A stretch of 64,000 nucleotides of DNA, from NCBI GenBank assembly GCA_963676565.1, contig OY781089.1:896001-960000 (forward strand), given 5' to 3'. Made by a program: the position numbers and the translations under genes. Under the pieces are notes generated by a model. That model was given only the letters and a program-made list of their open reading frames with translations, searched no databases and was not told where the DNA came from. Shown one piece after another: positions 23,248 through 49,319 of this stretch; positions within the stretch are counted from its first letter, which is position 1; each line of letters starts with the position of its first letter. The stretch is from Halarcobacter sp. GTDB lineage: Bacteria; Campylobacterota; Campylobacteria; Campylobacterales; Arcobacteraceae.

Positions 23248-23997
23248 ATGAGTATATCAATAGGTTTTGAAAAAGATGTTTTTTCCTTAGAAAAACTAAA
23301 ACTTCCCACAAGACATTACTATTTTAACGATACAGAAAATTATGTAAAGTTATTAAGTATAGGGGAAGGAATCTTCCCCAAAGATAGAATAAAAACAAAT
23401 ATTAAATTAGAAGACTCAACGGCAATAGTAACAACAGAAAGTGCTACAAAAGTATATCCTTCAAAGAAAGAGTTTGGAATAAACTATATAAATATTGATT
23501 TAAAATCTTCAAACTTAGAAGTATTAAATGATGAGTTGATTTTATATAAAGACTCAAAACTTCTTCAAATATTAAGGCTTAATGCCGATAAAAACTCAAC
23601 TTTTTTTTACTCAGATATTTTGACTCAAGGTAGAAGTTATGAACACTTTGACTTTGATTCTATGTTAGTTAGAAATAAATTCTTTCATGAGAAGAAACTT
23701 GAATATTTTGAAAATTTTGAAGTTTTAGGTAAGGATTTAAAAGATTATATAAAAAGACATGAAAGTCAAAATTATATATATTTAAAAATTTATATTAAAA
23801 CAAAAGATGATGATAATTTTTTAAAAGAACTTCATAGTAATAACTTTAATTCCTTTACTTTTACAAAATCAAAAAAGATGATTTTAGGTTCAATTTGTGC
23901 AAATAGTATGATAGAGATAAAAAAATTGCAAATAGAGATTTGGAATTTATATAGAAAAAATTTAAATAAAGAGGAATTTTGTTTAGGCAAACAATAA
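23248..23997 (+). CDS. ureD: Urease accessory protein UreD/UreH (divergent)
   Basis: G.GIF..D, TTESATKVY, D..T.GR..E.F.F motifs; follows urtE and is the only accessory gene missing from the downstream ure cluster. Confidence 0.8.
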   Translation: MSISIGFEKDVFSLEKLKLPTRHYYFNDTENYVKLLSIGEGIFPKDRIKTNIKLEDSTAIVTTESATKVYPSKKEFGINYINIDLKSSNLEVLNDELILYKDSKLLQILRLNADKNSTFFYSDILTQGRSYEHFDFDSMLVRNKFFHEKKLEYFENFEVLGKDLKDYIKRHESQNYIYLKIYIKTKDDDNFLKELHSNNFNSFTFTKSKKMILGSICANSMIEIKKLQIEIWNLYRKNLNKEEFCLGKQ

Positions 23998-24039
23998 GTT
24001 TTCCTAAATAGATTAAAAGATAAATAATTAAGGTGTTAG

Positions 24040-24558
24040 ATGAAAATTGAAATAAAACCAAAACCTCTTACCCGAGAAGCTTTCAAAAAATTTGGTGAAG
24101 TAATAAGTAAAGAGGGTAGGGATTCAATAAGTATTAACAGAGATTCTGCCCAAAAATTTTACGAAATATGTAATATGGATACAAATGAAAAAAGTGGGAT
24201 GACAACCTTACATATTTATATAGGGAATAAAAGAGAATTCCCTTTACAAATTGATATGTTAGAAAAACATCCATTATTTTCACAAACATTTATTCCAAGA
24301 AGTAAAGAGCCATTTTATTGTGTTGTTGCATTAGGTGGTAGGGAACCAGATTTATCAACTTTAGAAATCTTTGAAACTAATGGTGACCAAGGAGTTCATT
24401 ACAATAGGGGCATTTGGCATTTTCCATTAATATGTGTTAAAGATAAAGAAGAGTTTATTGTTTTAGATAGAGCAGGATTAAATAAAGAAGAAAAAATAAT
24501 AGTTGAACAAGTAGAATATAATATGAAAGATGAAGAGATTTATTTAGTAAGAGAATAA
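24040..24558 (+). CDS. allA: Ureidoglycolate lyase (copy 1)
   Basis: PLTREAF..FG.VI, MLEKHP..SQTFIP, F.TNG.QGV.Y.RG.WH.PL. Confidence 0.9.
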   Translation: MKIEIKPKPLTREAFKKFGEVISKEGRDSISINRDSAQKFYEICNMDTNEKSGMTTLHIYIGNKREFPLQIDMLEKHPLFSQTFIPRSKEPFYCVVALGGREPDLSTLEIFETNGDQGVHYNRGIWHFPLICVKDKEEFIVLDRAGLNKEEKIIVEQVEYNMKDEEIYLVRE

Positions 24559-24573
24559 ATCTCCATCTTTTTA

Positions 24574-25377
24574 TTACTTGTCTAATAACAATTTATCATC
24601 ATCTAACTCTTCACCATCTTCTCTTGCAAGGGCAAATAAATTAAGTAAATCTTTTACCTCATAATCAGATCTTTCTTTACCTTTTAAATCAAAGATAATT
24701 TTACCTTCGTGTAACATAATAGTTCGGCTCCCATGGTCTAAAGCTTGTCTCATTGAGTGAGTTACCATCATTACTGTTAATGATTTTTCTTCAATAATTT
24801 GTGAAGTAATATCCATAATAAGAGCTGCTGTTTTTGGATCTAATGCTGCTGTATGTTCATCTAGTAATAAAATACTACTTGGTTGTAAAGCTGACATTAA
24901 AAGACTAACTGATTGTCTCTGCCCTCCAGATAAAAGTCCCATTTGAGAATTTAATCTATCTTCAAGTCCAAGATTTAGTCTGCTTAACTGCTCTTGAAAG
25001 AGTTTACGTAAGTTACTATTTAGTGCAAAAGATAATGTACCTCTTTTACCACGACCATATGCTAAAGCCATATTCTCTTCAACTGTTAAATCACCACACG
25101 TTCCAGCAAGTGGGTCTTGAAATACTCTAGCTATATCTTTTGTACGACCAGTTGCAGGTAAAGATGTTACATCTCTATCATTAAAAAATATCTGCCCATG
25201 GGTTGCTTCAATATCACCTGCTATAGTATTAAGCAAGGTTGATTTTCCTGCACCATTTGAGCCAATAACTGTTACAAATTCACCTGTAGGTATAGTTAAA
25301 TCAACACCTCTTAAGGCTAACTTCTCAGTTGCTAAGCCATGGTTAAAAGTTACATGTAAATCCTTACAACAAATCAT
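24574..25377 (-). CDS. ABC transporter ATP-binding protein (ABC_sub_bind/TrpX-like system)
   Basis: VIGSNGAGKST, RVFQDP..GT, LSGGQRQ, LLLDEHTAALDPKT. Confidence 0.88.
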   Translation of the reverse strand: MICCKDLHVTFNHGLATEKLALRGVDLTIPTGEFVTVIGSNGAGKSTLLNTIAGDIEATHGQIFFNDRDVTSLPATGRTKDIARVFQDPLAGTCGDLTVEENMALAYGRGKRGTLSFALNSNLRKLFQEQLSRLNLGLEDRLNSQMGLLSGGQRQSVSLLMSALQPSSILLLDEHTAALDPKTAALIMDITSQIIEEKSLTVMMVTHSMRQALDHGSRTIMLHEGKIIFDLKGKERSDYEVKDLLNLFALAREDGEELDDDKLLLDK

Positions 25378-26276
25378 ACTTTTTTCCTTTTAGCTTTTTT
25401 CGCTTTATATTCACTTCGTAGTTTTGGGAATATTAATGATAAGGTAACAAGTACAGCCGTAAGTAGATTTAAGTCAGATGCTTGGAAACCTAAGAAGTCT
25501 GCATTAAGTGCCATTGAAACTGCAACCCTATATAAAATAGAACCAAGAATACAACTTAATACTACAACTAACATAGATTTTGTTCCAAATAAAGACTCAC
25601 CTATAATAACAGCAGCAAGTCCTACAACAATAGTTCCAATCCCCATTGTTGAATCTGCAAAACCACTAGTTTGCGCAAATAAAGCTCCTGCAAGTCCTAC
25701 TAAACCATTTGATAAAGCAAGTCCTACATACACTTTCTCTTTTACAACAATACCATTTGCTTGAGCCATTCTTTTATTAGAACCAACTGCTCTCATTGCT
25801 AAACCGTATTGTGTGTATAAGAACCATGCCAATAATAATCCACCAATAATTGCGCATACAGCTACAAATATAACTTTTAGATACATAGCTGGAATTCCTA
25901 AATCTTCAAATGGAGTTAACATAGTAGGCTCCATGATTAATGCAAGATTTGGTTTTCCCATTACACGAAGATTTATTGTGTATAAAGCTGTCATTGTAAG
26001 AATACTTGCAAGTAAATGAAGAATATTAAATCGTAAGTTTAACCATGCTGTAACAATACCTGCACATGCAGCTGCAAGTGTACCTAATAAAGTTGCTAAA
26101 TAAGGGTTTACTCCTGAGACTATTAGAGCAGCAGTTGCAGCCGCTCCTAGTGTAAAACTTCCATCAACAGTTAAATCTGGAAAATCTAAAATACGAAAAG
26201 TAAGATAGACTCCCATAGCAACTAAACCATAAATAAACCCTATTTCAAGTGTTCCTAAAAAAGCATAAAGTGACAA
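25374..26276 (-). CDS. ABC transporter permease (ABC_sub_bind/TrpX-like system)
   Basis: FRILDFPDLTVDGSF.LG, LYTINLR.MG.PN, MG.GTIV.GLA.VIIGE; TTG start. Confidence 0.88.
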   Translation of the reverse strand: MSLYAFLGTLEIGFIYGLVAMGVYLTFRILDFPDLTVDGSFTLGAAATAALIVSGVNPYLATLLGTLAAACAGIVTAWLNLRFNILHLLASILTMTALYTINLRVMGKPNLALIMEPTMLTPFEDLGIPAMYLKVIFVAVCAIIGGLLLAWFLYTQYGLAMRAVGSNKRMAQANGIVVKEKVYVGLALSNGLVGLAGALFAQTSGFADSTMGIGTIVVGLAAVIIGESLFGTKSMLVVVLSCILGSILYRVAVSMALNADFLGFQASDLNLLTAVLVTLSLIFPKLRSEYKAKKAKRKKV

Positions 26277-26291
26277 GTTGACAACTTTTAA

Positions 26292-27251
26292 TTATTTAAC
26301 AATTTTAGTAGCTTTTTCAAGTACTGATTTTGGAACTTCAATTCCCATTCTTTTAGCCATTTTTGGATTAACATAAAGGTCAGTTCCCTTAGCCATTTTT
26401 ACATCAATATCCCCTGGTTTTTCACCCTTTAAAATTCTTATAACAATATCTCCAGTTTGTTTCCCTAAATCAAAGTAGTTATAACCAACAGCAGCAATTG
26501 CTCCTCTTTCAACTGTACTTGTATCACCAGCAAAAACTGGAACTTGTGCATCAATACCAACTTTTACAACTGACTCAACAGCAGAGATAATAGTATTATC
26601 AATTGGACAGTAAATTGCATCTACTTTACCAACTAATTGTTTAGCTGCAATCATTACATCAGAAGATTTTGGAGCAGCTGCTTCTACAATTTTGATATCC
26701 ATTTCTTTTGCTACATCTTTAGCACTATTTAACATTGAAACAGAATTTGCTTCACCTGGATTATATGGAATACCAATTGTTTTTAGATTTGGTATAAAGT
26801 TCTTAATTAAAGTAAAATGTTCTTTAATATTAGCCATATCTGATAGACCTGTAACATTTCCACCTGGTTTTTTAAGTGTTGGTACAAGTTTTGCCGCAAG
26901 AGGGTCTGTTACTGCTGAAAATACAACAGGGATTGTTTTAGTAGCAGTAACTGCTGATTGCGCAGATGGTGTTGCAATTGCAACAATTATATCAGGGTTT
27001 TCACCTACCATTTTTCTAGCAATTTGTGAAGCGATATCAGGTTTTCCCTGAGCACTTTCATAAGTAAACTTAAGGTTTTCACCACTGTAACCATTATCAT
27101 TTAATGTTTGTTTGATACCATCTCTAACAGCATCTAAAGCAGGATGTTCTACAATTGCAGTTGTTGCAATATACACAGGTTTAGCTTGTAAAGCAGAAGA
27201 TACTAAAAGTGTTGATACAAGAGCACTTTTAAAAATTGAACTTAATCTCAT
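26292..27251 (-). CDS. ABC transporter substrate-binding protein (ABC_sub_bind, aromatic-amino-acid-type)
   Basis: VEHPALD, AQG, IATP.AQ, F.AVTDP, NVTG.SD, YN..E.NS, P.DNT. Confidence 0.88.
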   Translation of the reverse strand: MRLSSIFKSALVSTLLVSSALQAKPVYIATTAIVEHPALDAVRDGIKQTLNDNGYSGENLKFTYESAQGKPDIASQIARKMVGENPDIIVAIATPSAQSAVTATKTIPVVFSAVTDPLAAKLVPTLKKPGGNVTGLSDMANIKEHFTLIKNFIPNLKTIGIPYNPGEANSVSMLNSAKDVAKEMDIKIVEAAAPKSSDVMIAAKQLVGKVDAIYCPIDNTIISAVESVVKVGIDAQVPVFAGDTSTVERGAIAAVGYNYFDLGKQTGDIVIRILKGEKPGDIDVKMAKGTDLYVNPKMAKRMGIEVPKSVLEKATKIVK

Positions 27252-27438: not shown

Positions 27439-28611
27439 ATGCAAAGTTCATCACTTAAAATATCATTTACTCTATTTTTTGTAGTATCAATAATATTTTC
27501 AACAATCTATACTCCACAAGCAATTTTACCCGTACTAAAACAAGAATTTAATATTAGTATTTTACAAACAAACCTATTATTATCTGGGATGTTATTTGTT
27601 TTAATGATAGCTACACCTTTTTATATCCCAATAATCAATCGTTTTGAGAAAAAGAATATTATGGTTGTCTGTACTTTTTTTCTTTTTATCTCTGTACTAA
27701 TCTCTGCTTTTTCTACAAACTTTTATATTTTACTTTTAAGCAGATTTCTACAAGGGATATTTTTACCAGGAATTACAGCAATTATACTTTCATATATTCA
27801 AGAGGTTTACTCTGAAAAACATAGGGCGATGGGAATAGGAATATATATGGCAGGGACAAGTTTTGGTGCTGTAATAGGGAGACTTTTAGCTGGGTGGATA
27901 ACATTTCTTTATTCATGGCAAAAAGCATTTCTTGCTTTTGCTGTTTTATTAGCAATAGCATTTATGATTACACTATTTACTTTCCCTAAAACAGAAAAAA
28001 ACCACCATGAAAAAAAAGGAATTACTACAAAAGAGTTGTTAAAATATATATCAAATATAAAAGTCTTAACAGCTCTTTTAGTTCCAACTATAGTATTCTT
28101 TTCTTTTATGGCTATTTCCACTTTTGTGACATACCATTTAGTAGAAGAACCTTTTAACCTAAATACCCATCAAGTGGGAAATATATTTTTAGTATTAATA
28201 TTAGGAATAATCATAAGCCCAATAGCAGGAAAAATCTCAGGTATTTTTGGGCACTTAAAAATCATATATCTAGGGATCTTTCTTTTGATTATAGGAATCT
28301 TTTTAACCTTGACAAGTTCAGTTGTTGGTGTTATTGTCGGTATTGCTTTTGTTACTATGGGTATGTTCTGTGCACAATCTGTAAGTCCTAGTTATATTTT
28401 TAAACTAATCCCAAATGAAAAAGAAAAGATAGCTATTGTACATCAAACTTTTTTCTATTTGGGTGGATCTTTAGGGACTTTTTTACCATCACTTTTATGG
28501 GAATATTACAAATATGATGGGGTTACATATTTTTGTATTTTCTTACTTTTATTTTTAATTACAATTTTGACTTTTCAAAAATTATATTATATAAAGCAGA
28601 GTAAAAATTAA
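27439..28611 (+). CDS. MFS transporter (YnfM-like)
   Basis: ~12 TM; Y.PQ.ILP, RFLQG, YI.E, G.Y.AG...GA..GR, FYLGGS.G. Confidence 0.8.
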   Translation: MQSSSLKISFTLFFVVSIIFSTIYTPQAILPVLKQEFNISILQTNLLLSGMLFVLMIATPFYIPIINRFEKKNIMVVCTFFLFISVLISAFSTNFYILLLSRFLQGIFLPGITAIILSYIQEVYSEKHRAMGIGIYMAGTSFGAVIGRLLAGWITFLYSWQKAFLAFAVLLAIAFMITLFTFPKTEKNHHEKKGITTKELLKYISNIKVLTALLVPTIVFFSFMAISTFVTYHLVEEPFNLNTHQVGNIFLVLILGIIISPIAGKISGIFGHLKIIYLGIFLLIIGIFLTLTSSVVGVIVGIAFVTMGMFCAQSVSPSYIFKLIPNEKEKIAIVHQTFFYLGGSLGTFLPSLLWEYYKYDGVTYFCIFLLLFLITILTFQKLYYIKQSKN

Positions 28612-28622
28612 GATTTACATCC

Positions 28623-28654
28623 TTATAAAATAGTCAAAATTGACTATTTTATAA
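28623..28654. terminator. Bidirectional terminator between convergent genes
   Basis: Perfect 15-bp arms TTATAAAATAGTCAA / TTGACTATTTTATAA. Confidence 0.7.
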
Positions 28655-29377
28655 TACAGCTGAAAGGAAACCTTGCAACTCTTTTGTTTGAGGATTTGCA
28701 AAGACCTCCTCACTTTTTCCAGTTTCCCAAATTAAACCATCATGCATAAAAATAACCCTATCTCCTATGTCCCTTGCAAAATTCATTTCATGGGTAACTA
28801 AGATTAAAGTGATTCCTTCACTTGCAAGTTCTTCAAGTACTTTTAAAACTTCGCCAACTAATTCAGGATCTAAAGCAGATGTAATCTCATCACATAATAA
28901 TACTTTTGGTGACATGGCTAAACTTCTTGCAATTGCAACTCTTTGTTTTTGACCACCTGATAAACTTTCTGGATATTGATTGAAAAAGTCTGCCATTCCA
29001 ACTTTTTCTAAACATTTAATTGCTAACTCTTTTGCTTCTTCTTTACTTTTGCCAAGTATTAACCTTGGAGATAACATTACATTTTCTCCTGCTGTTTTAT
29101 GTGGATAAAGATTAAAACTTTGAAATATCATTCCACAAACTTTACTTATCTTTTGTAATTGCAAATCGTTTGTAGTAACTTCTAAGTTACCTACAATTAT
29201 ATTTCCTTTTTGATGCTCTTCAAGACCATTTATACATCTAAGAAGTGTACTTTTACCAGAACCAGACTTTCCAATAATAGAGATTACTTCTCCAGCTTTC
29301 ACCTTTAAGTCTATCCCTTTTAGGATATGTTTCTCTCCATAATATTTATGTACACCTTCTAAACTAACTAGAGACAT
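28649..29377 (-). CDS. Polar amino-acid-type ABC transporter ATP-binding protein
   Basis: GKSGSGKSTLLRCINGLE, FQSFNL.PH, LSGGQKQRVAIAR, DEITSALDPELVGEV. Confidence 0.92.
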   Translation of the reverse strand: MSLVSLEGVHKYYGEKHILKGIDLKVKAGEVISIIGKSGSGKSTLLRCINGLEEHQKGNIIVGNLEVTTNDLQLQKISKVCGMIFQSFNLYPHKTAGENVMLSPRLILGKSKEEAKELAIKCLEKVGMADFFNQYPESLSGGQKQRVAIARSLAMSPKVLLCDEITSALDPELVGEVLKVLEELASEGITLILVTHEMNFARDIGDRVIFMHDGLIWETGKSEEVFANPQTKELQGFLSAVL

Positions 29378-30014
29378 TTAACTTCCTTTCTAAATATTTA
29401 CTATATTTTGTAAGTGGGAAACAAATTAAAAAATATAAAATTGCCACAAAAGTGAATACTTTAAATGGTTCAAAAGTTGCATTATTTAACATTGTCCCAG
29501 CTTTTGTAATTTCAACAAAGCCTATAATTGAAGCTAACGCTGTTCCTTTAACAACTTGAACAGAAAAGCCAACAGTTGGAGCAGTTGCTAATCTTACTGA
29601 TTGAGGAATTATCACATGAATCATTGTTTGATAATAGTTTAATCCCATAGTTTTTGCTGCTTCCCATTGTCCTTTGTCAACTGACTCAAGACAACCTCTC
29701 CAGATTTCAGTTAAAAAGGCACTAGTAAAAAGTGTTAATGCCAAACTAGCAGCTCCCCAAGCACCTAATTCTATGCCAATTAATGATAAACCAAAAAATG
29801 CAAGGAAAAGTTGCATAAGAAGGGGAGTTCCTTGAAAAACTTCCACATAGATTTGAATTAAAATTGTTAGAAATTTATTATTTGTCATTCTAAGAATTAA
29901 TAAAACACCAGCAACAATACCTCCACCAATAAATGCAATAATTGATAAAAGTACTGTCCATCTAGCTGCTAATAATAAGTTTTGAAATATATCAAAAGTA
30001 GTAAATTGTTCCAT
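29364..30014 (-). CDS. Polar amino-acid-type ABC transporter permease
   Basis: FQGTPLLMQLF, EIWRG..GQWEA, PQS.R, KGTALASIIG. Confidence 0.92.
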   Translation of the reverse strand: MEQFTTFDIFQNLLLAARWTVLLSIIAFIGGGIVAGVLLILRMTNNKFLTILIQIYVEVFQGTPLLMQLFLAFFGLSLIGIELGAWGAASLALTLFTSAFLTEIWRGCLESVDKGQWEAAKTMGLNYYQTMIHVIIPQSVRLATAPTVGFSVQVVKGTALASIIGFVEITKAGTMLNNATFEPFKVFTFVAILYFLICFPLTKYSKYLERKLNVSS

Positions 30015-30017
30015 TTT

Positions 30018-30680: not shown

Positions 30681-30689
30681 TAATTACTC

Positions 30690-31469: not shown

Positions 31470-31504
31470 TTTTAATCCTTAATATTGATGATTTTTCATA
31501 TAAA

Positions 31505-41253: not shown

Positions 41254-42678
41254 ATGATTGAAAATATCAATAATGATTCTTTGGCTCCAACATCAAAGAG
41301 TGAAAAAAAATGGAAATGGTTTGAGGTGTCTAATATTTGGGCAAATGATATACAAAGTTTATTTGGATATACCCTTGTTGCATCACTTTTTATAAGTTAT
41401 CAAGTTACAGGATGGACTGCTTTTGCAGCACTTATAGTTGCAGGATTACTTGTAACTTTTTTAGTTAATATTTCAGGAAAAGCTGGTGTTGATTATGGAA
41501 TTCCATATCCAGTATTAGCAAGATCTAGTATGGGAATAAAAGGGGCAAAACTATCAGCAATTATTAGAGCAATTGTTGCAGTGTTTTGGTTTGGTGTTCA
41601 AACGTATTTTGCTTCAACTGCACTTCATCTTTTAATTACTGCCCTTACAGGTATAAAATTAGAAACAACATATTTAGGAATTGATGCTATTGGATGGTTA
41701 TCATTTTTTATTGTTTGGGTTCTTCAAATGGTTATTTTCTCAAAGGGTATGAACTGGGTTTCTAAGTTTTTAAATTTTGCTGCTCCTTTTGTTTATATAA
41801 TTATGATTGGTTTATTAGTTGTTTTATGGAGTAAATCAGGTGGTGAGTTATTTAGTGTGGCTAATAATATCTTCTCAAATGAACAATCAAGTTTAAGTAG
41901 TGAAGTTAATGGTTTTTTTGCAATTTTAGGGACAATGATTGCTTACTTTGCAGCTGTTATGATTAACTTTAGTGATTTTTCAAGATATGCAAAAGATAAT
42001 AAATCAATGGTAGTTGGAAACTTAGTTGGACTTCCTTTTAATATGGTATTTTTCTCTGCTTTAGCCCTTTTAATTACAGCTGGTTCAGTTGTTGTATTTG
42101 GTGAAAAACTTACAAATCCTATGGATATTGTTGAAAGAGCTGATAGTACAATTTTGAGTTTAATTGCTGCAATTACATTCTTTACTGCAACAGTTGGAAT
42201 TAATTTAGTAGCAAACTTTATCCCTGCTGTTAATGGTATTTCAAATTTAGCACCAAAAAAACTGTCATTTAAAAAATCAGGGCTTATTACCTCTTTCTTT
42301 GCACTTATTATTGGTGGGTTTTGGGTAAGCTTTATTAGTCAAGTTGGTATTAGTCCAATTGTTAATACTCTAGGTGCTACATTAGCTCCATTGTATGGAA
42401 TTTTAGTAATTGATTACTTTTTAGTTAAAAAACAAACTTTAGATATAGACTCTTTATATGATGAATCACAAAATAGTGAGTATTTTTATGAAAATGGATG
42501 GAATAGTAGTTCAATTATCGCTTTTATAATAGGTGCAACATTTTCTATTTGTACTGTATGGATTGAATCTTTAAGTTCATTAAATGGATATGGATGGATA
42601 ATTGGAGCAATCTTAGGAGCAATAGTGCATTTAGTTTTATCAAAAAAAGCAACACAAAATCAATTAGCATTTAATTAA
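41254..42678 (+). CDS. NCS1-family nucleobase:cation symporter (probable allantoin/ureide permease)
   Basis: W.NDI.SL.GY, GIPYPV..R.S.G..GA, WFG.QT, NFSDFSRY, INLVANF. Confidence 0.9.
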   Translation: MIENINNDSLAPTSKSEKKWKWFEVSNIWANDIQSLFGYTLVASLFISYQVTGWTAFAALIVAGLLVTFLVNISGKAGVDYGIPYPVLARSSMGIKGAKLSAIIRAIVAVFWFGVQTYFASTALHLLITALTGIKLETTYLGIDAIGWLSFFIVWVLQMVIFSKGMNWVSKFLNFAAPFVYIIMIGLLVVLWSKSGGELFSVANNIFSNEQSSLSSEVNGFFAILGTMIAYFAAVMINFSDFSRYAKDNKSMVVGNLVGLPFNMVFFSALALLITAGSVVVFGEKLTNPMDIVERADSTILSLIAAITFFTATVGINLVANFIPAVNGISNLAPKKLSFKKSGLITSFFALIIGGFWVSFISQVGISPIVNTLGATLAPLYGILVIDYFLVKKQTLDIDSLYDESQNSEYFYENGWNSSSIIAFIIGATFSICTVWIESLSSLNGYGWIIGAILGAIVHLVLSKKATQNQLAFN

Positions 42679-42688
42679 AAGAGGAAAA

Positions 42689-44863
42689 ATGGGAAATAAA
42701 ATTTTACAAGGAAGTTTAAAAGTAGATGAGTCTTTATTTAATTTAGTTAATGAAGAGATTTTACCAACGACAACTATTTCAAAAGAGAGTTTTTGGAATA
42801 GTTTTGAAAATATTATTGAAGAATTATCACGGGAAAACAAAAATTTATTAGAAAAAAGAGATACCCTACAATCTTTAATTGATTCGTGGCATCAAAATAA
42901 TAAATATGATGCCAACAATTTGCTTGAATATAAAAATTTTTTAAAACAAATTGGCTATTTAATTGAATCAGATGAGAGTTTTAAAGTTGAAACTTCAAAT
43001 GTAGATGAAGAAATAGCTATTCAAGCAGGTCCTCAACTTGTGGTTCCTGTTAAAAATGCTAGGTTTGCATTAAATGCAGCAAATGCTAGATGGGGAAGTT
43101 TATATGATGCCTTATATGGAACTGATGTTATCCCAAAAGAGGGTGATTTAGCACCAACAAAAGAGTATAACATCAAAAGAGGTGAGGCAGTTGTTTCCTA
43201 TGCAAAAAAGTTTTTAGATGAATCAGTACCATTAGAAAATGGCTCATTTAAAGATGTAAAAGGGTTTAAAATTGATGGAAATATTCTTCAATTTATTTTA
43301 ACTGATAACTCATCTACAAGTTTAAAAAATAAAGAAAAGTTTCTTGGATATATAGCAGATAAAGCAAATCCTAAAGCATTGATTTTTAAAAACAATAATT
43401 TACATATTCAGATTTTATTAGATAAAGAAAGCTTCATAGGAAAGCTTGATATTGCTGGAATAAAAGATATAGTTTTAGAATCAGCAGTTTCAACGATTAT
43501 GGATTGTGAAGATTCAATTGCAGCAGTGGATGCTCTAGATAAAGTTGAAGTTTATAGAAATTGGTTTGGTCTTATGAAAGGTGATTTAGAAGAAAGTTTT
43601 ACTAAAGGTGATAAAACAATCACAAGAAAATTAAATGATGATATTGTTTATAAATCTTTAGATGGGGAAGAAAAAATCTTACATGGAAGAAGTTTATTAT
43701 TTGTAAGAAATGTAGGACATCTTATGACAAACCCTGCAATTTTAGATAAAAATGATGAAGAGGTTTTTGAAGGAATTATGGACTGTATGATGACAGTTTT
43801 ATGTTCACTTGTTGATATTGAACAAAAAAATTCTAAATCAAATTCTAGAGAAAAAAGTGTTTATATTGTAAAACCAAAAATGCATGGTCCAGCAGAAGTT
43901 GCCTTTACTGTTAAACTTTTTGAAAAGGTAGAAAAAGCCTTAAATATTCCAGAAAATACAATTAAAATTGGAATTATGGATGAAGAAAGAAGAACAACTA
44001 TAAATTTAAAAGAGTGTATAAAACAAGCAAAACAAAGAGTGGTTTTTATCAATACTGGATTTTTAGATAGAACAGGTGATGAGATTCACACTTCTATGTT
44101 AGCAGGGGCGTTTGTTGCTAAAACAAAGATGAAGGAACAAACTTGGATAAAAGCATATGAGAGTTGGAATGTTGATATTGGTTTAGAGTGTGGTTTACAA
44201 GGTAAAGCTCAAATTGGTAAAGGGATGTGGGCAATGCCAGATGAAATGGCAAAAATGATGACTGAAAAAATATCTCATCCAAAATCAGGGGCAAATACAG
44301 CTTGGGTTCCCTCTCCAACAGCAGCAGTTTTACATGCTATGCATTATCATAAAATAAATGTTTTTGAGGTTCAAAATGAACTAAAAAATAAAAAAAGAGC
44401 ATCAATTGATGATCTTTTAACACTTGCACTTATGGATGAAAATGAAATTATAAGTAAAGATGAAATAAAAAAAGAGCTTGATAACAATGCTCAAAGTATT
44501 TTAGGATATGTTGTAAGATGGGTTGATGCAGGAATTGGATGTTCAAAAGTTCCTGATATCAATAATATTGCACTTATGGAAGATAGGGCAACCCTTAGAA
44601 TCTCATCTCAACATTTGGCAAATTGGATTGAACATGGTATTTGCTCTAAAGAAGAGGTTATGGATTCTTTAAAAAATATGGCAGTTGTTGTTGATAAACA
44701 AAATGAAAATGACCCTACATATATAAATATGGCACCTTTATATGATGGCTTTGCCTTTAAAGCTGCTTGTGATTTAGTGTTTAAAGGAAAGGCTCAACCA
44801 TCAGGTTATACAGAACCATTATTACATAAATATAGACAGGAGTTTAAGCAAAATAACTTATAA
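42689..44863 (+). CDS. glcB: Malate synthase G
   Basis: AGPQLVVP..NARFALNAANARWGSLYDALYG, IMDCEDS, RNVGHLM, VKPKMHGP, FINTGFLDRTGDEIH, MEDRATLRISSQ. Confidence 0.97.
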   Translation: MGNKILQGSLKVDESLFNLVNEEILPTTTISKESFWNSFENIIEELSRENKNLLEKRDTLQSLIDSWHQNNKYDANNLLEYKNFLKQIGYLIESDESFKVETSNVDEEIAIQAGPQLVVPVKNARFALNAANARWGSLYDALYGTDVIPKEGDLAPTKEYNIKRGEAVVSYAKKFLDESVPLENGSFKDVKGFKIDGNILQFILTDNSSTSLKNKEKFLGYIADKANPKALIFKNNNLHIQILLDKESFIGKLDIAGIKDIVLESAVSTIMDCEDSIAAVDALDKVEVYRNWFGLMKGDLEESFTKGDKTITRKLNDDIVYKSLDGEEKILHGRSLLFVRNVGHLMTNPAILDKNDEEVFEGIMDCMMTVLCSLVDIEQKNSKSNSREKSVYIVKPKMHGPAEVAFTVKLFEKVEKALNIPENTIKIGIMDEERRTTINLKECIKQAKQRVVFINTGFLDRTGDEIHTSMLAGAFVAKTKMKEQTWIKAYESWNVDIGLECGLQGKAQIGKGMWAMPDEMAKMMTEKISHPKSGANTAWVPSPTAAVLHAMHYHKINVFEVQNELKNKKRASIDDLLTLALMDENEIISKDEIKKELDNNAQSILGYVVRWVDAGIGCSKVPDINNIALMEDRATLRISSQHLANWIEHGICSKEEVMDSLKNMAVVVDKQNENDPTYINMAPLYDGFAFKAACDLVFKGKAQPSGYTEPLLHKYRQEFKQNNL

Positions 44864-44946
44864 AACTGCTTATAAAATAAACAATTGTAAATATAGTAAA
44901 CTATATTTTTTAGATAAAATATCATACAAAACAAAGGGGGTATTGG

Positions 44947-45630
44947 ATGTTTTTAACAAATCGTGAACAAGAAAAATTGATGATTTATACAGCGTCAAAG
45001 CTTGCACTTGAAAGAAAAGAAAAGGGATTAAAACTAAATTTCCCAGAAGCAAATGCGATTATAAGTTCTTTTATACTTGAAGGAGCTAGAGAGGGTAAAA
45101 GTGTTGCTCAACTTATGGTAGATGCTACAAAAGTTTTAAAGGCAGATGATGTTATGCCTGGTGTTGCTTCTATGATGCATATGGTTCAAACAGAAGCTAC
45201 TTTTGATGATGGTACAAAACTTGTTACAGTTCACAATCCAATACCTGTAAATCAAACTGAGATAACTCCTGGTGAATATTTTATTGATGAGGGTGAAATT
45301 GAATTAAATGAAGGTAGTGAAGTTACTACAATAGAAGTTGAAAATGTAGGAGATAGACCTATTCAAGTGGGTTCTCATTATCACTTCTTTGAAACAAATG
45401 CCTTTTTAGATTTTAATAGAGAATTAGCTTATGGTCAAAGATTAAATATCCCAAGTGGTACTTCTGTTAGATTTGAACCAGGTAGTAAAAAACAGATTGA
45501 AGTAGTTCCATTTAAAGGGAAAAGATATATAGCAGGATTTAATGGTTTAGTAAATGGTTATTTAGATGAAAAAGAGACAAAAGAAAAAGCAATGAAGAAT
45601 TTAGAAACATTTATTGGAGAGAGATCATGA
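44947..45630 (+). CDS. ureAB: Urease fused gamma/beta subunit
   Basis: [24 protein letters not shown] (gamma) fused to [23 protein letters not shown] (beta). Confidence 0.96.
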
Positions 45631-47330
45631 AGATAAGTAAATCAAAATATGCATATATGTATGGACCAACAACAAATGATAGATTTAGACTTGCAGACAC
45701 CTCTTTAATTGCAAAAATTGAAAAAGATTATACAACATATGGAGAAGAGTCAAAATTTGGTGGTGGTAAAACTATTAGAGATGGAATGAGTCAATCTCCA
45801 TTAGCTGTTGAAACTGCTGATTTGATTATTACAAATGCTGTTATTATTGATTATACAGGTATTTATAAAGCTGATATAGGTATCAAAGATGGAAAAATTT
45901 CAGCTATTGGAAAATCGGGTAATCCATACAATTGTGATGGTATAACTGAAGGCTTAGAGATAGGTGCAAATACAGAAATACTTTCAGCTGAGGGAAAAAT
46001 TATAACTGCTGGTGGGATAGATTCACATATTCATTTTATAAGTCCTGGTCAAATTGATGAAGCACTAGCAAGTGGAGTTACTACTATGATTGGTGGGGGA
46101 ACAGGACCAAACACAGGAACAAACGCTACAACTTGTACTCCAGGTGAGTTTAATATTCAAAAGATGATTGAATCTGTAGATGATTTACCATTAAACTTTG
46201 GATTTATGGGAAAAGGAAATAGTTCAAATTATGATGCTTTAAAACATCAAATTGAAGCTGGTGCCATGGGATTAAAACTTCATGAAGATTGGGGAACAAC
46301 TCCAAATGCCATTGATACATGTTTAAAAGTTGCAGATGATTTTGATGTTCAAGTTGCTATTCATACAGATACTTTAAATGAATCAGGATTTGTAGATAAT
46401 ACAGTAAATGCTTTTGCTGGAAGAACAATTCACACTTTCCATAGTGAAGGAGCTGGAGGTGGTCATGCCCCTGATATTATGAAAGTAGCTGGTTTAGAAA
46501 ATATCTTACCATCAAGTACAAATCCAACTTTACCATATACAAAAAATACAATAGAAGAACACCTTGATATGCTTATGGTTTGTCACCATTTAAGTCCAAA
46601 AATTCCTGAAGATGTGAGTTTCGCAGAAAGTAGAATTAGAGGTAATACAATTGCCGCAGAAGATGTTTTACATGATATTGGAGCAATTTCAATTACAAGT
46701 TCAGATTCACAAGCTATGGGAAGAGTAGGAGAAGTGGTTACAAGAACTTGGCAAGTAGCAGATTCTATGAAAAAACAAAGGGGCGCTTTAGAAGGTGATG
46801 ATTCTTTAAGTGATAATGAGAGAATTAAAAGATATGTTGCAAAATATACTATAAACCCTGCTATTGCTTGTGGTATTGATGAACATGTTGGAAGTGTTGA
46901 AGTTGGTAAAATGGCAGATTTAGTTCTTTGGACACCTGCATTTTTTGGAGTTAAACCAGAACTTATCATAAAAGGTGGATTTATTGCTTTAGCTATGATG
47001 GGTGATTCAAATGCATCTATTCCAACACCTGAACCAAATGTTTATAGACCTATGTTTGGAAGTTTAGGGAAAGCCGCAGCTAACACAAGTGCAATGTTTG
47101 TATCCCATTTAGCAATTGATAGAGGACTTGAAGAAAAGCTTGATACAAAAAAAGTGATGCTTCCTGTTAAAAACACAAGAAATATTGGTAAAAAAGATAT
47201 GAAGTTAAATGATTTTATCGGGGATATTCAAGTTGACCCTGAAACATATGATGTAACAGTAAATGGTGAAACTATAACTTCAAGTTACCAAGAAGAATTG
47301 CCAATGGCAAAAAAATACTTCTTGTTTTAG
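45627..47330 (+). CDS. ureC: Urease alpha (catalytic) subunit
   Basis: [51 protein letters not shown]. Confidence 0.98.
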
Positions 47331-47341
47331 GAATAAATATT

Positions 47342-47776
47342 ATGATTTGTAAAGTAACAGAAATTATTAGAGATGTAGAAGCAGATGATGAGGTACTACT
47401 AGATTGGTTTGATATGCAAAAACCGAATCTATGTGCAATAAGTAAAAATGGTTTAGAGTTTATTGTTAAAGCAAAATATACTCATCTTCATGAAAATGAT
47501 ATTTTAGTTTGTGAAGATGGGCATAAAATAAAAATCTCTAAATCAGAAGATGAGATTTATACTTTAACATTTTCTGACCATATCACTTTTGCAAGAATTG
47601 CATATGAGATAGGAAATAGGCATCAGCCAGTTTGTATAGAGGATTACAAAATCACAATTTTAGAAGATATCTCAACCCAAGATATTATTAAAGCGTGTGA
47701 ATCTATTGATAAAGTAGAAGTAAAAAAACATAGGGGTATTTTTAAACCAAATGGTAATGCACACCACAGTCACTAA
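47342..47776 (+). CDS. ureE: Urease accessory Ni chaperone UreE
   Basis: AYEIGNRH.P motif, short His tail AHHSH. Confidence 0.88.
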   Translation: MICKVTEIIRDVEADDEVLLDWFDMQKPNLCAISKNGLEFIVKAKYTHLHENDILVCEDGHKIKISKSEDEIYTLTFSDHITFARIAYEIGNRHQPVCIEDYKITILEDISTQDIIKACESIDKVEVKKHRGIFKPNGNAHHSH

Positions 47777-48458
47777 TAGTAAAAATCAAGCAAGAGCTTT
47801 AAGTAGATTTTTACAACTTCTAGATGGAGTTTTCCCCTCTGGAGCATTTGTTCATTCCTTTGGACTAGAACCTCATATTGTTTTAGATTTTGTAAATGAT
47901 AAAGAATCTTTAAAGCAATATCTAGAAAATATAGTAATAGATCAATATCAAAATCTAGAGTTTGTAGCTGTAAAAAAAGCATATAAACTATTAGAAGAAG
48001 ATAGATTAAATCATTTAGTAAAAGAGGATGAAAAATTTTCTTCAATGCTTAGTTTTGAATATGCTAAAGCTTCAAAAGATTTAGGTGAAAACTATTTAAA
48101 GCATATAAATTTTGATATAAAAGAAAAGATTGTTCAAGAGTATTTTGAATTTGTAAAAAATAAAAAAAGTTTTGGGAATGAACTTTTCATTTTAAGTGCG
48201 TATGCTTATGAATTGGGACTTGAATGTGATACATTTTTACTTTTCTGGACAAAAAAGGCTTTGATAAATATAGCAAGTGCTAGTTTAAAAATATCTAGGA
48301 TTAAACCAACTGAAATACAACAGATTTTGTTTTGGTTTGATGAGGTTTTAGAAGAGAAAATTAGTTCAAGTTCAAAGAACATAAGTAACTTCAATCCTTT
48401 ATTTGAAGAAGTTATCTTTAGTCACTTAAATCTTGAACCAAAAATGTTTGCAACATAG
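47751..48458 (+). CDS. ureF: Urease accessory protein UreF
   Basis: LQL.D..FP.GAF.HSFGLE; C-terminal H......MF.T. Confidence 0.9.
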   Translation: MVMHTTVTNSKNQARALSRFLQLLDGVFPSGAFVHSFGLEPHIVLDFVNDKESLKQYLENIVIDQYQNLEFVAVKKAYKLLEEDRLNHLVKEDEKFSSMLSFEYAKASKDLGENYLKHINFDIKEKIVQEYFEFVKNKKSFGNELFILSAYAYELGLECDTFLLFWTKKALINIASASLKISRIKPTEIQQILFWFDEVLEEKISSSSKNISNFNPLFEEVIFSHLNLEPKMFAT

Positions 48459-48561
48459 GATAATTGTCTTTTTACACAATTTCTTCGTTAAAAGTTCATT
48501 CATTTACAGTAGTAAACTTCATAAACTTTTGCCTTGAACTTGCACAAAAAATTCAATTATC
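48459..48561. repeat. ~100-bp imperfect palindrome (REP/MITE-like element)
   Basis: GATAATTG...CAATTATC termini, nested AAAAGTT/AACTTTT and TTTAC/GTAAA arms. Confidence 0.6.
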
Positions 48562-48640
48562 AAGTTTTTTGAAGAGAAGTATTTGGTATTTTTTTAGATA
48601 GAAAGAAAATTTATATTAACTACATAAGAAAACCTCTGCA

Positions 48641-48680
48641 ATGGTAGGGTAAAAATCTTTGATTTTTGGGCACCCACCAT
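48641..48680. repeat. GC-rich REP-like hairpin
   Basis: ATGGTAGGGT-AAAAATC-ttt-GATTTTT-gggc-ACCCACCAT. Confidence 0.5.
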
Positions 48681-48731
48681 GAAGCCGTTTTCATTGTGGT
48701 TGATATAAGTTTTTACAGGATAGGAAATTTT

Positions 48732-49319
48732 ATGAGTATTAAAATAGGAATAGCAGGACCAGTAGGAAGTGGAAAAACTTCTATTATTGAAAAACTAACA
48801 AATATGTTAAAAGATGAACACTCTTTAGGTATTGTTACAAATGATATATATACAAAAGAAGATGCAAATTATCTAAAAAATAAACTTGATTTAAATAATG
48901 ATCAAATCATTGGAGTTGAAACAGGTGGTTGCCCTCATACAGCAATTAGAGATGATATCTCTATGAATCAAAAAGCAATTGAAGAGCTTGAAGAAAAATT
49001 CAATCCTGATATTATCTTTGTGGAAAGTGGAGGGGATAATCTTAGTGCTACTTTTTCATATGAATTAATTGATTATTATCTTTATGTAATTGATGTGGCT
49101 CAAGGAGCTGATATACCAAGAAAAAAAGGTGCAGGACTACTATTTTCAGACCTTTTAGTTGCAAATAAAACTGACCTTTGCCCTTATGTAAATGTGGATT
49201 TAGAAAGTTACAAAAAAGATGTTCATGAAAGTAGAAAAAATAAACCAAGTATCTTCTTATCAAACCAAGATGAACAAAGTTTTGATAAATTAAAAGAGTG
49301 GATAAAAGCCTTAATATAA
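48732..49319 (+). CDS. ureG: Urease accessory GTPase UreG
   Basis: GPVGSGKT, VTNDIYT.EDA, VETGGCPHTAIR.D, ESGGDNL, NKTDL; start moved to ATG 48732 (SD AGGA). Confidence 0.95.
   Translation: MSIKIGIAGPVGSGKTSIIEKLTNMLKDEHSLGIVTNDIYTKEDANYLKNKLDLNNDQIIGVETGGCPHTAIRDDISMNQKAIEELEEKFNPDIIFVESGGDNLSATFSYELIDYYLYVIDVAQGADIPRKKGAGLLFSDLLVANKTDLCPYVNVDLESYKKDVHESRKNKPSIFLSNQDEQSFDKLKEWIKALI

Follow-up and report, generated by a model that had tools for sequence, protein, structure and literature searches.

Ureide breakdown genes nested between ureD and ureAB in Halarcobacter sp., with predicted GntR-type and nitrogen-responsive operators

The ureide breakdown genes of Halarcobacter sp. (genome G000; relatives carry G-numbers) are nested between ureD and ureAB of the urease cluster. 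In the window, meaning the whole 64,000-nucleotide stretch analyzed, ORF coordinates and family scans placed ureD (23248–23997) 20.9 kb from the fused gamma/beta gene ureAB (44947–45630). We read the locus, with a probability of about 0.75, as a nitrogen-scavenging island in which ureide catabolism is under predicted GntR and nitrogen control and urease has a promoter of its own. The genes named in the sequence-only reading were all reproduced at their places, and its assignment of a PuuE, allantoicase, AllA and urease route with malate synthase was upheld by the family scans.

Gene content of the locus

The region of urtA is adjoined by Pfam-assigned genes of an OmpR-type response regulator (13343–14023, minus strand), a REC-HisKA-HATPase kinase (14020–15078, minus) and a hybrid histidine kinase (15154–17445, plus); a homologue of the hybrid kinase also lies upstream of urtA in G190, G274 and G245. 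The urea ABC importer urtABCDE (17573–23167, plus) matched TIGR03407, 03409, 03408, 03411 and 03410, all five above the NCBIfam cut-offs. After a spacer (23168–23247) follows the accessory gene ureD (plus; PF01774, 78 bits, cut-off 27), with orthologues of 64–93% identity in 17 of 24 congeners. The gap to ureAB holds two allA genes, three ABC importers, an MFS transporter, an HpxA-type allantoin racemase, a LysE-family exporter, a GntR/FCD regulator and the run puuE-alc-allA-NCS1-glcB.

From puuE through ureG, every gene is on the plus strand. PuuE (38625–39533; TIGR03212, 473 bits, cut-off 425) is followed by the allantoicase gene alc (39509–40558; TIGR02961, 387 bits, cut-off 278), allA-2 (40568–41086; PF04115, 151 bits), an allantoin-permease-like NCS1 permease (41254–42678; PF02133, 253 bits) and glcB for malate synthase G (42689–44863; NF002825, 1204 bits, cut-off 565; TIGR01345, 1084 bits). 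Then come an 83-bp spacer (44864–44946), ureAB (NF009671, 304 bits, cut-off 243) and, by family scans, ureC, ureE, ureF and ureG, ending at 49319. The second ureidoglycolate lyase gene, allA-1 (24040–24558, plus; PF04115, 148 bits), encodes a product 54% identical to that of allA-2 and has orthologues directly 5' of ureD in eight congeners. Both copies scored below the NCBIfam equivalog cut-offs.

The genome (3.34 Mb, single contig, 99.97% complete) encodes one malate synthase, one urease and two AllA proteins. Uricase, HIU hydrolase and OHCU decarboxylase gave zero matches across the whole genome, and the best genome-wide match to xanthine dehydrogenase, an XdhB-like one, scored 29.6 bits, far below the cut-off of 849.5; the absence of these four, first reported for the window, thus extends to the entire genome. 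Since no enzyme leading from purines or urate to allantoin is encoded, the substrate of the pathway must come from outside the cell. Isocitrate lyase was not found genome-wide either, the sole family match being the methylisocitrate lyase PrpB (515 bits, cut-off 353), so malate synthase G does not belong to a glyoxylate shunt.

Racemase and transporters

The racemase (36383–37081, plus; Asp/Glu/hydantoin racemase family PF01177, 197 bits) matched PDB entry 3qvj along its full length (E 5.7e-65) and 5lfd, named 'Allantoin racemase' (E 2.3e-42). It retains both cysteines (VIACFDDPGL and LGCAGMA), which are serines in the mutant chains 3qvk and 3qvl, and the earlier identification as HpxA-like is borne out. 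The LysE gene (37091–37699, plus; PF01810) is accessory and occurs only in G000 and G023. The MFS gene (27439–28611, plus; PF07690, 167 bits) is found in the gap of 7/10 other block-bearing congeners and in G190 and G274.

The substrates of both AllA copies, NCS1 and all three ABC systems were assigned from gene context, and the three ABC systems themselves were recognized by family scans. The Liv/HAAT-type system (binding protein, two permeases, two ATPases; 31816–36383, plus) always lies directly 5' of the racemase gene, in 8/10 other block-bearing congeners and in G405, and we predict that it imports allantoin or another ureide; the best PDB matches of its binding protein were amino-acid and amide binders (E ~1e-13). 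The polar-amino-acid-type system (ATPase, two permeases, SBP_bac_3 binding protein; 28649–31469, minus) has GntR-type operators adjoining the start of its operon and is likewise a predicted importer of a ureide, allantoin or allantoate. Besides an MFS, it is the only transporter with a homologue in the blocks of G002, G274, G245 and G190; in G017 the agmatinase module described below brings further transporters. NCS1, which scored 267 bits against NF008476 (below the cut-off of 620), is missing from the blocks of G002, G017, G274, G245 and G190. The remaining ABC transporter (ATPase, permease, ABC_sub_bind/TrpX-like binding protein; 24574–27251, minus) is probably outside the ureide regulon, because it is kept in the block-less G004, G012 and G016 and no GntR operator precedes it.

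Conservation of the ureD–ureAB junction

Synteny was examined in 24 congeners, 16 other families and genomes of other genera. PuuE genes are missing from all 7 congeners that lack urease. The block sits between ureD and ureAB in each of the 11 genomes of the genus that have puuE (gaps of 9.7–22.6 kb), and the nesting is repeated in three genomes of other genera, namely G274, G245 and G190, the last with alc-allA and without puuE. Judged from this recurrence, in 10/10 other puuE-positive congeners and three genomes of other genera, the nested layout is not a chance neighborhood.

As the sequence-only reading had expected of relatives lacking the block, ureD abuts ureAB (9–26 nt) in G009, G013, G018, G021, G032 and G039, four congeners and two outgroup genomes. 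However, the expectation did not hold for G004, G012 and G016, which lack puuE and still have ureD 2.9–4.1 kb from ureAB. The closed junctions support, at the level of synteny, an insertion at this point, as was proposed. Nevertheless, it would not be recent in the strain, for the layout is genus-wide and occurs in at least two other genera. Some block-less states appear to be secondary, because G016 retains a 3' stump of glcB, along with part of an ABC ATPase gene. In a UreD+UreAB tree, the closed-junction genomes were placed, with weak support (81/93), among lineages that carry the block.

Across the genomes compared, the junction is a variable site that holds modules in differing combinations. 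The insert of G017 includes an agmatinase (TIGR01230, 200 bits, cut-off 174) and a GABA transaminase (577 bits, cut-off 507), a module that likewise releases urea. In Pseudomonadota, a similar GntR-NCS1-racemase-puuE-alc-allA set was present in 29/77 loci.

Predicted operators

Both operator types described here, and the operon structure, are predictions. The GntR/FCD (FadR-type) regulator gene (37780–38463, plus; PF00392 and PF07729) was found in every block, and homologues with 26–33% identity lie near alc in 45/77 Pseudomonadota loci. Tandem ATTGTnnACAAT sites precede puuE, the Liv-type ABC/racemase operon and the polar-amino-acid-type ABC operon. Two are located before the latter at 31504–31528 in a 13-bp phase. 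Before the Liv-type operon (31710–31754), three overlap a variant of the N-box described below, TGTATAAATTGTAAACA, with one mismatch; the position of these operators is shared by those relatives in which the operon occurs. The puuE promoter region (38517–38561) consists of an N-box variant (TGTATAAAAAATAAACA, 38517–38533), two tandem predicted operators (ATTGTAGACAAT, at 38537 and 38550) and TGcTAGAAT, which resembles an extended -10 element. Seven of the 13 exact ATTGTnnACAAT copies in the genome fall, in 13-bp phase, in two spacers totaling 507 bp. The operators keep their places in 10/10 block-bearing congeners and are missing from the ureD–ureAB intervals of the six block-less congeners examined. 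We predict that the GntR/FCD protein is the repressor of the ureide regulon.

The N-box is a 17-bp palindrome, TGTATA-N5-TATACA, found before glnA, amtB and urtA and, in weaker form, before ureD, ureAB and puuE. Exact copies number seven in the genome against 2.3 expected, all of them intergenic and before nitrogen-assimilation genes or urtA. The one at 17453–17469 is upstream of urtA; the other six precede two amtB genes (with P-II genes), the GlnD operon, glnA, and the genes of an NMT1-like ABC binding protein and a formate/nitrite transporter. With up to one mismatch, 33 copies were observed against 72 expected. As the enrichment is limited to exact copies, single variants, here those of ureD, the Liv-type operon and puuE, would carry little weight unless conserved in relatives. 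The N-box/GntR operator/-10 layout before puuE is kept in 14/14 other blocks (10 congeners, G274, G245, G190 and G405), with an exact N-box in G023, G274, G245 and G190. Just 5' of urtA, the box is exact in G190 and G274, and in other genera boxes with 0–1 mismatch precede urtA, the GntR-puuE operon and ureAB. At urtA, ureAB and puuE the box lies 31–33 nt 5' of the -10 element.

The urtE–ureD spacer contains the variant AGTATA-N5-TATACA (23169–23185) and a copy of a ~50-nt promoter-like element that is also present before ureAB. Only G000 and G014 show this spacer in full, and the G010 stretch covers just its 3' part; in the remaining genomes ureD is directly adjoined by urtE or an allA1-type gene.

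Control of urease and alternative explanations

The insertion had been suggested to place urease under allantoin control, possibly with ureABCEFG expressed mainly by read-through from the puuE-glcB operon. Such read-through is possible, since the glcB–ureAB spacer showed no consensus terminator; moreover, the genes share a strand, the spacer is short and folds no better than its shuffles (z -0.11), and ureAB is preceded by a degenerate N-box that has three mismatches in G000, G014 and G010 (1–2 in most relatives). However, the spacer has its own order of elements, TGCTTA-N5-TAAACA, a T-run, AGATAAAAT and GGGGG before the ATG. This promoter-like element, which resembles that at nitrogen-assimilation promoters, is conserved, together with an RBS, throughout an alignment of 18 genomes that come from more than one genus and carry the block or a remnant of it. 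It is present also where glcB does not precede ureAB, and in G004, G012 and G016, which lack the puuE operon. Read-through could be weakened in G000, G014 and G010, the only genomes whose spacer shows an A/U hairpin with a T-run behind it. Because ureAB has this conserved element and its spacer contains no ATTGTnnACAAT operator, these comparisons lend no support to a direct control of urease by allantoin, and we regard a mainly allantoin-inducible urease as doubtful.

It is improbable that the junction merely tolerates insertions and received the ureide genes by chance. Some cargo has no obvious link to urea (the ABC_sub_bind transporter, MFS and LysE, or TauE, gamma-glutamyltransferase and a TRAP set in the gap of G023), and in G405 the ureide block and urease are on separate contigs. 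Nevertheless, both pathway steps whose genes lie in the gap set free the urea used by the flanking genes, the agmatinase module of G017 is urea-releasing too, the promoters have the N-box in common, and allantoicase never occurred without urease in the 16 allantoicase-positive Campylobacterota genomes examined. In an independent case, a gammaproteobacterium has allantoicase directly before ureA, with ureD split off. Equally improbable is a block serving mainly carbon and energy metabolism or glyoxylate detoxification. The operon does include the only malate synthase gene, and an earlier genome paper on a related strain (PMC4584990) lists malate synthase with central-carbon genes; however, only two of the four allantoin carbons reach glyoxylate, acetyl-CoA is consumed, isocitrate lyase was not found, glcB is missing from the blocks of G190 and G274, and the promoters share a box with glnA and amtB. 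We give even less credence to a locus whose transporters and racemase handle hydantoins or ureides other than allantoin, with PuuE, Alc and AllA serving a different set of natural substrates. The depositors of 3qvj named it 'putative hydantoin racemase' and any characterized relatives of the ABC binding proteins are distant, but PuuE and allantoicase exceeded equivalog cut-offs, the racemase matched 5lfd, and the Pseudomonadota loci hold a similar gene set.

Proposed function

In the nitrogen-scavenging island that we favor, UrtABCDE would take up urea, and allantoin or other ureides would probably enter via the NCS1 permease and the Liv-type and polar-amino-acid-type ABC systems. HpxA would racemize (R)- to (S)-allantoin, PuuE would open the ring to give allantoate, allantoicase would convert it to ureidoglycolate and urea, and AllA would release glyoxylate and a second urea. 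The single urease would hydrolyze both ureas, and malate synthase G would condense glyoxylate with acetyl-CoA. The GntR/FCD repressor would act at the tandem sites overlapping the promoters of the puuE-alc-allA-NCS1-glcB, Liv-ABC-hpxA and polar-amino-acid-type ABC operons until a pathway intermediate lifts repression. A putative global nitrogen regulator would act at the boxes of urtA, ureAB and puuE; its box also marks glnA, amtB/glnK and glnD, and variants precede ureD and the Liv-type operon. Through a promoter of its own, urease would answer mainly to nitrogen status, to which read-through from glcB could add.

A literature search found no description of the pathway in Arcobacter or Campylobacterota, in agreement with the sequence-only reading, which knew of none in Campylobacterota. 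The enzymes themselves are familiar, and a known pathway here stands in a new arrangement and lineage; what is new is the arrangement with its predicted control, including the two predicted operators. In this marine Arcobacter-like bacterium the allantoin genes lie between two parts of the urease cluster, so that a single locus carries the genes for uptake, for releasing and splitting urea and for disposing of glyoxylate.

Gene organization of the locus

Six-frame ORFs scanned against NCBIfam and Pfam bore out the gene calls and coordinates of the sequence-only reading, including its observation that ureide genes lie between ureD and ureAB. A hybrid histidine kinase gene (15154-17445) is located upstream of urtABCDE (17573-23167), whose five genes all scored above equivalog cut-offs. 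They are followed by ureD (23248-23997), allA-1 (24040-24558), a three-gene ABC transporter on the minus strand with an ABC_sub_bind-type binding protein (24574-27251), an MFS gene (27439-28611), a polar-amino-acid-type ABC importer of four genes, likewise on the minus strand (28649-31469; binding protein at 30690-31469), a Liv/HAAT-type ABC importer of five genes (31816-36383; binding protein at 31816-32985), an Asp/Glu/hydantoin racemase gene of the HpxA type (36383-37081), a LysE exporter gene (37091-37699) and a GntR/FCD regulator gene (37780-38463). The last part consists of puuE (38625-39533), alc, encoding allantoicase (39509-40558), allA-2 (40568-41086), an NCS1 permease gene (41254-42678) and glcB, encoding malate synthase G (42689-44863). 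The fused ureAB (44947-45630) begins after an 83-bp spacer, and ureC, ureE, ureF and ureG extend to 49319. The G+C content was 27-34% across the window with no step at the edges of the ureide block, so composition gives no hint of a recent transfer.

The ureF-ureG spacer (48459-48665) is 207 bp long and non-coding, and no repeat or RNA family was found there, whereas in three genomes of other genera (G190, G274 and G245) ureG directly follows or overlaps ureF. The stretch 3′ of ureG (49432-56372) encodes a 1057-residue protein with GH15 glucoamylase-like and phosphorylase-kinase C-terminal-like domains, then a glucokinase and a 921-residue PLD-helicase-DUF3427 protein. An Rfam scan of 15000-50000 detected no riboswitch. 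Its sole match, with 59 bits against a gathering score of 40 (E 5e-13), was RF02514, the 5′ ureB small RNA of Helicobacter, at 45774-46054 on the minus strand, where it runs antisense to the 5′ portion of ureC. This model is itself antisense to a conserved coding region, so that coding conservation alone may explain the match. Each of six public DNA runs from three studies contained 69% or more of the 31-mers sampled from 41000-47000, meaning that strains very close to this one have been repeatedly sequenced. No public RNA run with this stretch was among those listed, and four RNA runs sharing a species label with the matching DNA runs had zero reads on 37700-49400, which has no bearing on expression.

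Enzyme and transporter assignments

All enzymes belong to known families and the pathway is a textbook one. PuuE matched TIGR03212 with 473.2 bits (cut-off 424.6) over 295 of 297 positions, and its polysaccharide deacetylase domain matched PF01522 (45 bits against 23). These matches assign it as a metal-independent allantoinase of the polysaccharide-deacetylase fold, predicted to convert (S)-allantoin to allantoate. The allantoicase scored 387.2 bits with TIGR02961 (cut-off 277.9) and matched PF03561 in two stretches (320.8 bits). Both AllA proteins passed PF04115 (147.9 bits for allA-1 and 151.0 for allA-2, cut-off 23) and remained below the best NCBIfam equivalog, NF002949 (146.9 and 141.3 bits, cut-off 230), and the subfamily model NF009932 (118.9 and 119.2 bits, cut-off 160); their predicted AllA membership thus holds at the fold or family level, not at the equivalog level. 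Malate synthase G was identified by NF002825 (1203.8 bits against 565) and TIGR01345 (1084.3 against 989), and it carries the MSG-specific insertion domain PF20658 (MSG_insertion, 75 bits). The predicted nickel urease set is complete, with the structural subunits UreAB (NF009671, 304 bits against 243) and UreC (TIGR01792, 936 against 680), UreG (TIGR00101, 244 against 204), and UreD, UreE and UreF above their Pfam cut-offs (78, 38 and 69 bits, respectively).

The closest solved relative of the racemase is the Klebsiella structure 3qvj (E 5.7e-65), aligned over residues 2-231, the full length; 5lfd, deposited as "Allantoin racemase", matched with E 2.3e-42. The alignment placed Cys at both positions that are Ser in the mutant chains 3qvk and 3qvl, and, in keeping with the mutant deposits, we take these two residues to be catalytic. 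The NCS1 permease scored below the cut-offs of the curated models (NF008476, 266.9 against 620 bits; NF047713, 229 against 800; TIGR00800, 233.6 against 353), and of the models tried only Pfam PF02133 passed. The protein is therefore a family member whose putative substrate, allantoin, is suggested by the genomic context.

Proposed pathway and genomic background

As follows from established knowledge of these enzyme families, allantoin would be converted to allantoate, then to ureidoglycolate and urea, and finally to glyoxylate and a second urea. Hydrolysis of both ureas by urease would give a total of four ammonia, and the glyoxylate would be removed by malate synthase G. The ureide pathway needs urease, which would account for strict co-occurrence and for selection that keeps the genes together.

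The genome is 99.97% complete and consists of a single 3.34-Mb contig, of which the window is a part. No match to PF01014, PF00576 or PF09349, representing uricase, HIU hydrolase and OHCU decarboxylase, was detected in the complete genome, although control genomes were positive; the urate-oxidase search covered the uricase family PF01014 alone, as distinct from the FAD-type (HpxO) and cytochrome-type (PuuD) enzymes. The best genomic score for the xanthine dehydrogenase XdhB was 29.6 bits against a cut-off of 849.5. On these results, the classical route cannot supply allantoin from purines. Family searches of the genome gave one malate synthase, one urease locus and exactly two allA genes. A glyoxylate shunt, initially suggested by an isocitrate lyase Pfam match, was dropped. 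The sole PF00463 match is a 306-codon open frame, with 294 residues from the first Met, that scored 514.7 bits with NF008455 (PrpB, cut-off 353) and 70-83 bits with isocitrate lyase models (cut-offs 276-562). The protein is methylisocitrate lyase PrpB, no isocitrate lyase was found in the genome, and glcB is thus not half of a glyoxylate shunt.

The ureD/ureAB junction across relatives

We searched for UreD, UreAB and PuuE in 24 congeners and, within the order, in 16 genomes of other families. Of the 24 congeners, 17 had UreD, 17 had UreAB and 10 had PuuE, which was absent from all seven urease-less congeners; a UreD match in congener G008 (E 2e-4) was spurious. Each of the 11 genomes of the genus with puuE had the ureide block between ureD and ureAB, where the gap measured 9.7-22.6 kb. 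In congeners G009, G013, G018 and G021, and in outgroups G032 and G039, ureD adjoins ureAB (9-26 nt). This compact urt-ureD-ureAB-ureC-EFG cluster is orthologous to that of the window (UreAB 63-83%, UreD 41-75% identity), and urtE lies directly 5′ of ureD wherever upstream sequence was examined (G009, G013, G021 and the G032 contig); its gap holds no ureide block and leaves no room for a promoter. Congeners G004 and G012 have a gap of ~2.9 kb containing the ABC_sub_bind transporter alone. The gap of congener G016 (locus L005) contains the same type of transporter, a polar-amino-acid-type ABC ATPase gene reduced to ~150 of its 242 codons, and the 3′ terminal portion of glcB. By its gene content this remnant is the scar left by a deletion of the ureide block, the sole proven loss.

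The invariant core of the block is GntR-puuE-alc-allA-(NCS1)-glcB-ureAB, and the remaining parts vary. The blocks of congeners G002 and G017 have neither NCS1 nor the Liv-ABC-racemase unit, and LysE is limited to the window's own genome (G000) and congener G023. The second allA, of the allA-1 type, follows ureD in G000 and congener G014, and eight others have it directly 5′ of ureD. In G017 the gap (L016:2311-12956) also encodes a PotA-like polyamine-type ABC transporter, an agmatinase-family ureohydrolase (TIGR01230, 200 bits against 174), an NCS1 permease, an aldehyde dehydrogenase, a GABA transaminase (TIGR00700, 577 bits against 507) and a DUF6597 protein. Judging from these families, the agmatinase module is a second predicted urea-releasing route in the ureD/ureAB gap. 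In G023 (loci L012 and L013) a TauE exporter, a γ-glutamyltransferase (337 bits, slightly below the 358 cut-off) and a TRAP transporter, with no evident link to urea, are encoded between ureD and the allA1-type gene.

Among 401 genomes drawn evenly across the phylum, five, including G000, had allantoicase (TIGR02961), and urease was present in 16 of the 16 allantoicase-positive Campylobacterota genomes examined. The closest allantoicase loci in named records were from Halarcobacter sp. (87% and 74% identity) and a Campylobacteraceae bacterium (79%). The gene order in G274 and G245 is kinase-urtABCDE-ureD-(MFS)-ABC-GntR-puuE-alc-allA-(glcB)-ureAB-C-E-F-G, and G190 has the same order without puuE. 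In G405, a genome of another genus, Liv-ABC-racemase-GntR-puuE-alc-allA-NCS1-glcB lies away from urease, which is on another contig; the block (L105, L106) is flanked by genes for a nicotinate phosphoribosyltransferase and a TPR protein. Its proteins are 75-96% identical to those of the window and its allantoicase nests among Halarcobacter sequences, which suggests that the ureide block moves between genera as a unit. In G032, GntR-puuE-alc-allA was found on a separate short contig of 5.8 kb.

Age and direction of the event

The allantoicase tree joined the 16 Campylobacterota sequences in a single clade (SH-aLRT 100) set off by a long stem, and none of the groups among the best 77 loci of Pseudomonadota was clearly its sister. 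No recent donor is therefore visible. In the UreD+UreAB tree, the closed-junction genomes grouped weakly (81/93) with congeners G003 and G004 inside block-bearing lineages; with support of 81-86% at the key forks, this tree did not discriminate between gain and loss within the genus. Given this placement, the original insertion looks old and several of the block-less states may be losses. The earlier interpretation of a ureide block inserted into a urease operon is largely right, except for the recency that it implied and for allantoin control of urease, which is discussed below.

Candidate operators and promoter elements

We infer all regulation from sequence. In the spacers of the block, the palindrome ATTGTnnACAAT is repeated in tandem with a 13-bp phase: two copies (31504, 31517) adjoin the start of the polar-amino-acid-type ABC operon, three (31717, 31730, 31743) precede the Liv-type operon and two (38537, 38550) precede puuE. 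Exact copies numbered 13 genome-wide against 18 expected, and seven of the 13 lay in these spacers, which total 507 bp. The sites were conserved at the same positions in all ten block-bearing congeners, and none occurred in the ureD-ureAB intervals of the six block-less congeners examined. FadR-type GntR regulators are expected to have palindromic operators with TGT and ACA arms. The regulator encoded in the block has an N-terminal winged helix (PF00392, 40 bits) and a C-terminal FCD domain (PF07729, 46 bits), and ATTGTnnACAAT is predicted to be the operator of this GntR/FCD (FadR-subfamily) repressor.

A second palindrome, the 17-bp TGTATA-N5-TATACA (N-box), is a candidate nitrogen-regulon operator. 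It has seven exact copies in the genome against 2.3 expected, all seven intergenic and ahead of genes for nitrogen assimilation, at positions 228229, 229941, 230089, 784989, 913453 (window 17453), 967948 and 3310634 of the G000 contig C1. Exact copies precede two amtB genes with P-II genes, glnA, urtA and a divergent operon ending in glnD; others precede an NMT1-like ABC binding protein gene and a formate/nitrite transporter gene paired with a two-component system. Two ORFs without a Pfam match (L111:4622-5509 and 5538-6296) lie between one N-box pair and glnD. At up to one mismatch the N-box was not enriched genome-wide (33 against 72 expected), and a variant copy was therefore given weight only at a conserved position. 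Two sites showed such conservation, one before puuE (or GntR-puuE) and one before ureAB.

At the puuE or GntR-puuE promoter, 14 of 14 other blocks examined had an N-box, a 3-5 nt interval, two GntR operators and an extended -10-like TGnTA(G/A)AAT; the N-box was exact in G023, G274, G245 and G190. Before ureAB, an element of ~50 nt was alignable in 18 genomes, including G004, G012, G016, G190, G274 and G245. It reads TG(A/T)ATA-N5-TATACA, ~31 nt, (T/A)GATAnAnT and a ribosome-binding site, and its N-box is degenerate (three mismatches) in G000, G014 and congener G010. The ureAB-type element also occurs before ureD in G000 and G014, and the fetched stretch of G010 shows its 3′ part alone. The distance from N-box to -10 was 31-33 nt at urtA, ureAB and puuE. 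A σ70 promoter scan returned fewer sites than shuffled sequences (85 against 96; 51 against 78) and was uninformative in DNA of 29% G+C.

These elements bear on the suggestion that the block put urease under allantoin control. The suggestion is not borne out, as ureAB has no GntR operator and carries its own conserved promoter-like element. Read-through from glcB into ureAB is possible, since the spacer contains no consensus terminator and its fold z-score was -0.11. In the model that we propose, the ureide operons would be under dual control, by nitrogen limitation and by release of the GntR repressor, and urea uptake and urease would respond to nitrogen status alone. Passages of a comparative regulon paper (PMC5343134) indicate that the phylum has no orthologues of the regulators studied there, NtrC among them. 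We tentatively propose, with a probability of roughly one in three, that the ureD/ureAB junction in marine Arcobacteraceae is a dedicated collecting site for urea-yielding modules (ureide, and agmatinase/guanidino in one species), each wired into an undescribed global nitrogen regulon of Campylobacterota marked by TGTATA-N5-TATACA, and that the Liv-type and polar-amino-acid-type ABC importers have a new allantoin/allantoate specificity.

Comparison with known systems

The GntR-NCS1-hpxA-puuE-alc-allA clusters of Pseudomonadota (Burkholderia, Caballeronia and Paraburkholderia; loci L024-L094) share the enzyme families and chemistry of the window, and GntR, NCS1, racemase, PuuE, Alc and AllA occurred together in 29 of 77 allantoicase loci. 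However, identity to the window is low (Alc 44-48%, PuuE up to 62%, GntR 26-33%), and glcB was within 10 kb in none of the 77 loci and urease in one, whereas the window has both. The binding proteins and permeases of the Liv-type and polar-amino-acid-type importers have no homologue in these loci; the ATPases alone do.

The single urease-linked locus, L100 from the gammaproteobacterium Marinobacterium lacunae AK27, is arranged like the window as urtDE-ureD-[insert]-ureA-ureB-ureC-ureE-ureF-ureG, with ureD and ureA ~8.6 kb apart and allantoicase directly 5′ of ureA. Unlike that of the window, its insert has no puuE, allA, glcB, racemase or GntR; it encodes a glycosyltransferase and an Amt-PAS-GGDEF-EAL fusion protein and ends with an RpiR regulator and allantoicase. 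The urease γ and β subunits are separate genes in L100 and fused in the window. The L100 allantoicase does not fall near the Campylobacterota clade, and the locus looks like an independent parallel event.

Enterobacterial systems (E. coli allB-allC-allD-gcl with AllR/AllS; Klebsiella hpx) likewise use external allantoin as a nitrogen source and share a dedicated permease and regulator, and in Klebsiella also the HpxA racemase. In these bacteria, ammonia is released directly by allantoate amidohydrolase, no urease is needed, and glyoxylate goes to glyoxylate carboligase, not malate synthase. The DAL cluster of Saccharomyces cerevisiae (DAL1, DAL2, DAL3, DAL4, DAL7 and DCG1) corresponds to the window item by item in functional content. 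It is eukaryotic, and the likeness is an analogy of layout and not one of homologous clusters; DAL1 is an amidohydrolase-type allantoinase, not PuuE, and the yeast urea-removing enzyme is the urea amidolyase DUR1,2. Published passages (PMC13751858, PMC10120013) assign to the DAL cluster an allantoinase, an allantoicase, a ureidoglycolate lyase, an allantoin permease, a malate synthase and a probable allantoin racemase; the review among these sources places DUR1,2 outside it. Passages of the same sources mention bacterial glcB genes inside purine-degradation operons (PMC10120013) and a genomic association of urease with UGLYAH2-type allantoicases (PMC13751858).

Among the literature matches listed, no description of the pathway was found for Arcobacter, Halarcobacter, Epsilonproteobacteria or Campylobacterota. 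The genome paper of Arcobacter anaerophilus IR-1 reports urease activity and presents malate synthase as a distinctive central-carbon gene; its main text contains none of the strings "allanto", "purine" and "glyoxylate" (PMC4584990).

Biological meaning

The novelty consists in the fusion of the pathway with a urease cluster and its occurrence in this phylum, together with the modular junction and the pair of predicted operators. As no enzyme is new, the locus is of value for comparative and regulatory biology and not for mechanism. It provides two testable operator motifs, of which the N-box appears to define a nitrogen regulon of the phylum. The "unique" malate synthase of a related genome, earlier listed as a central-carbon gene (PMC4584990), can be re-read in this light. 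The locus illustrates how a pathway that yields urea can become one heritable unit with the urease on which it depends, a unit through which a free-living or invertebrate-associated member of Campylobacterota gains access to a nitrogen-rich excretion product.
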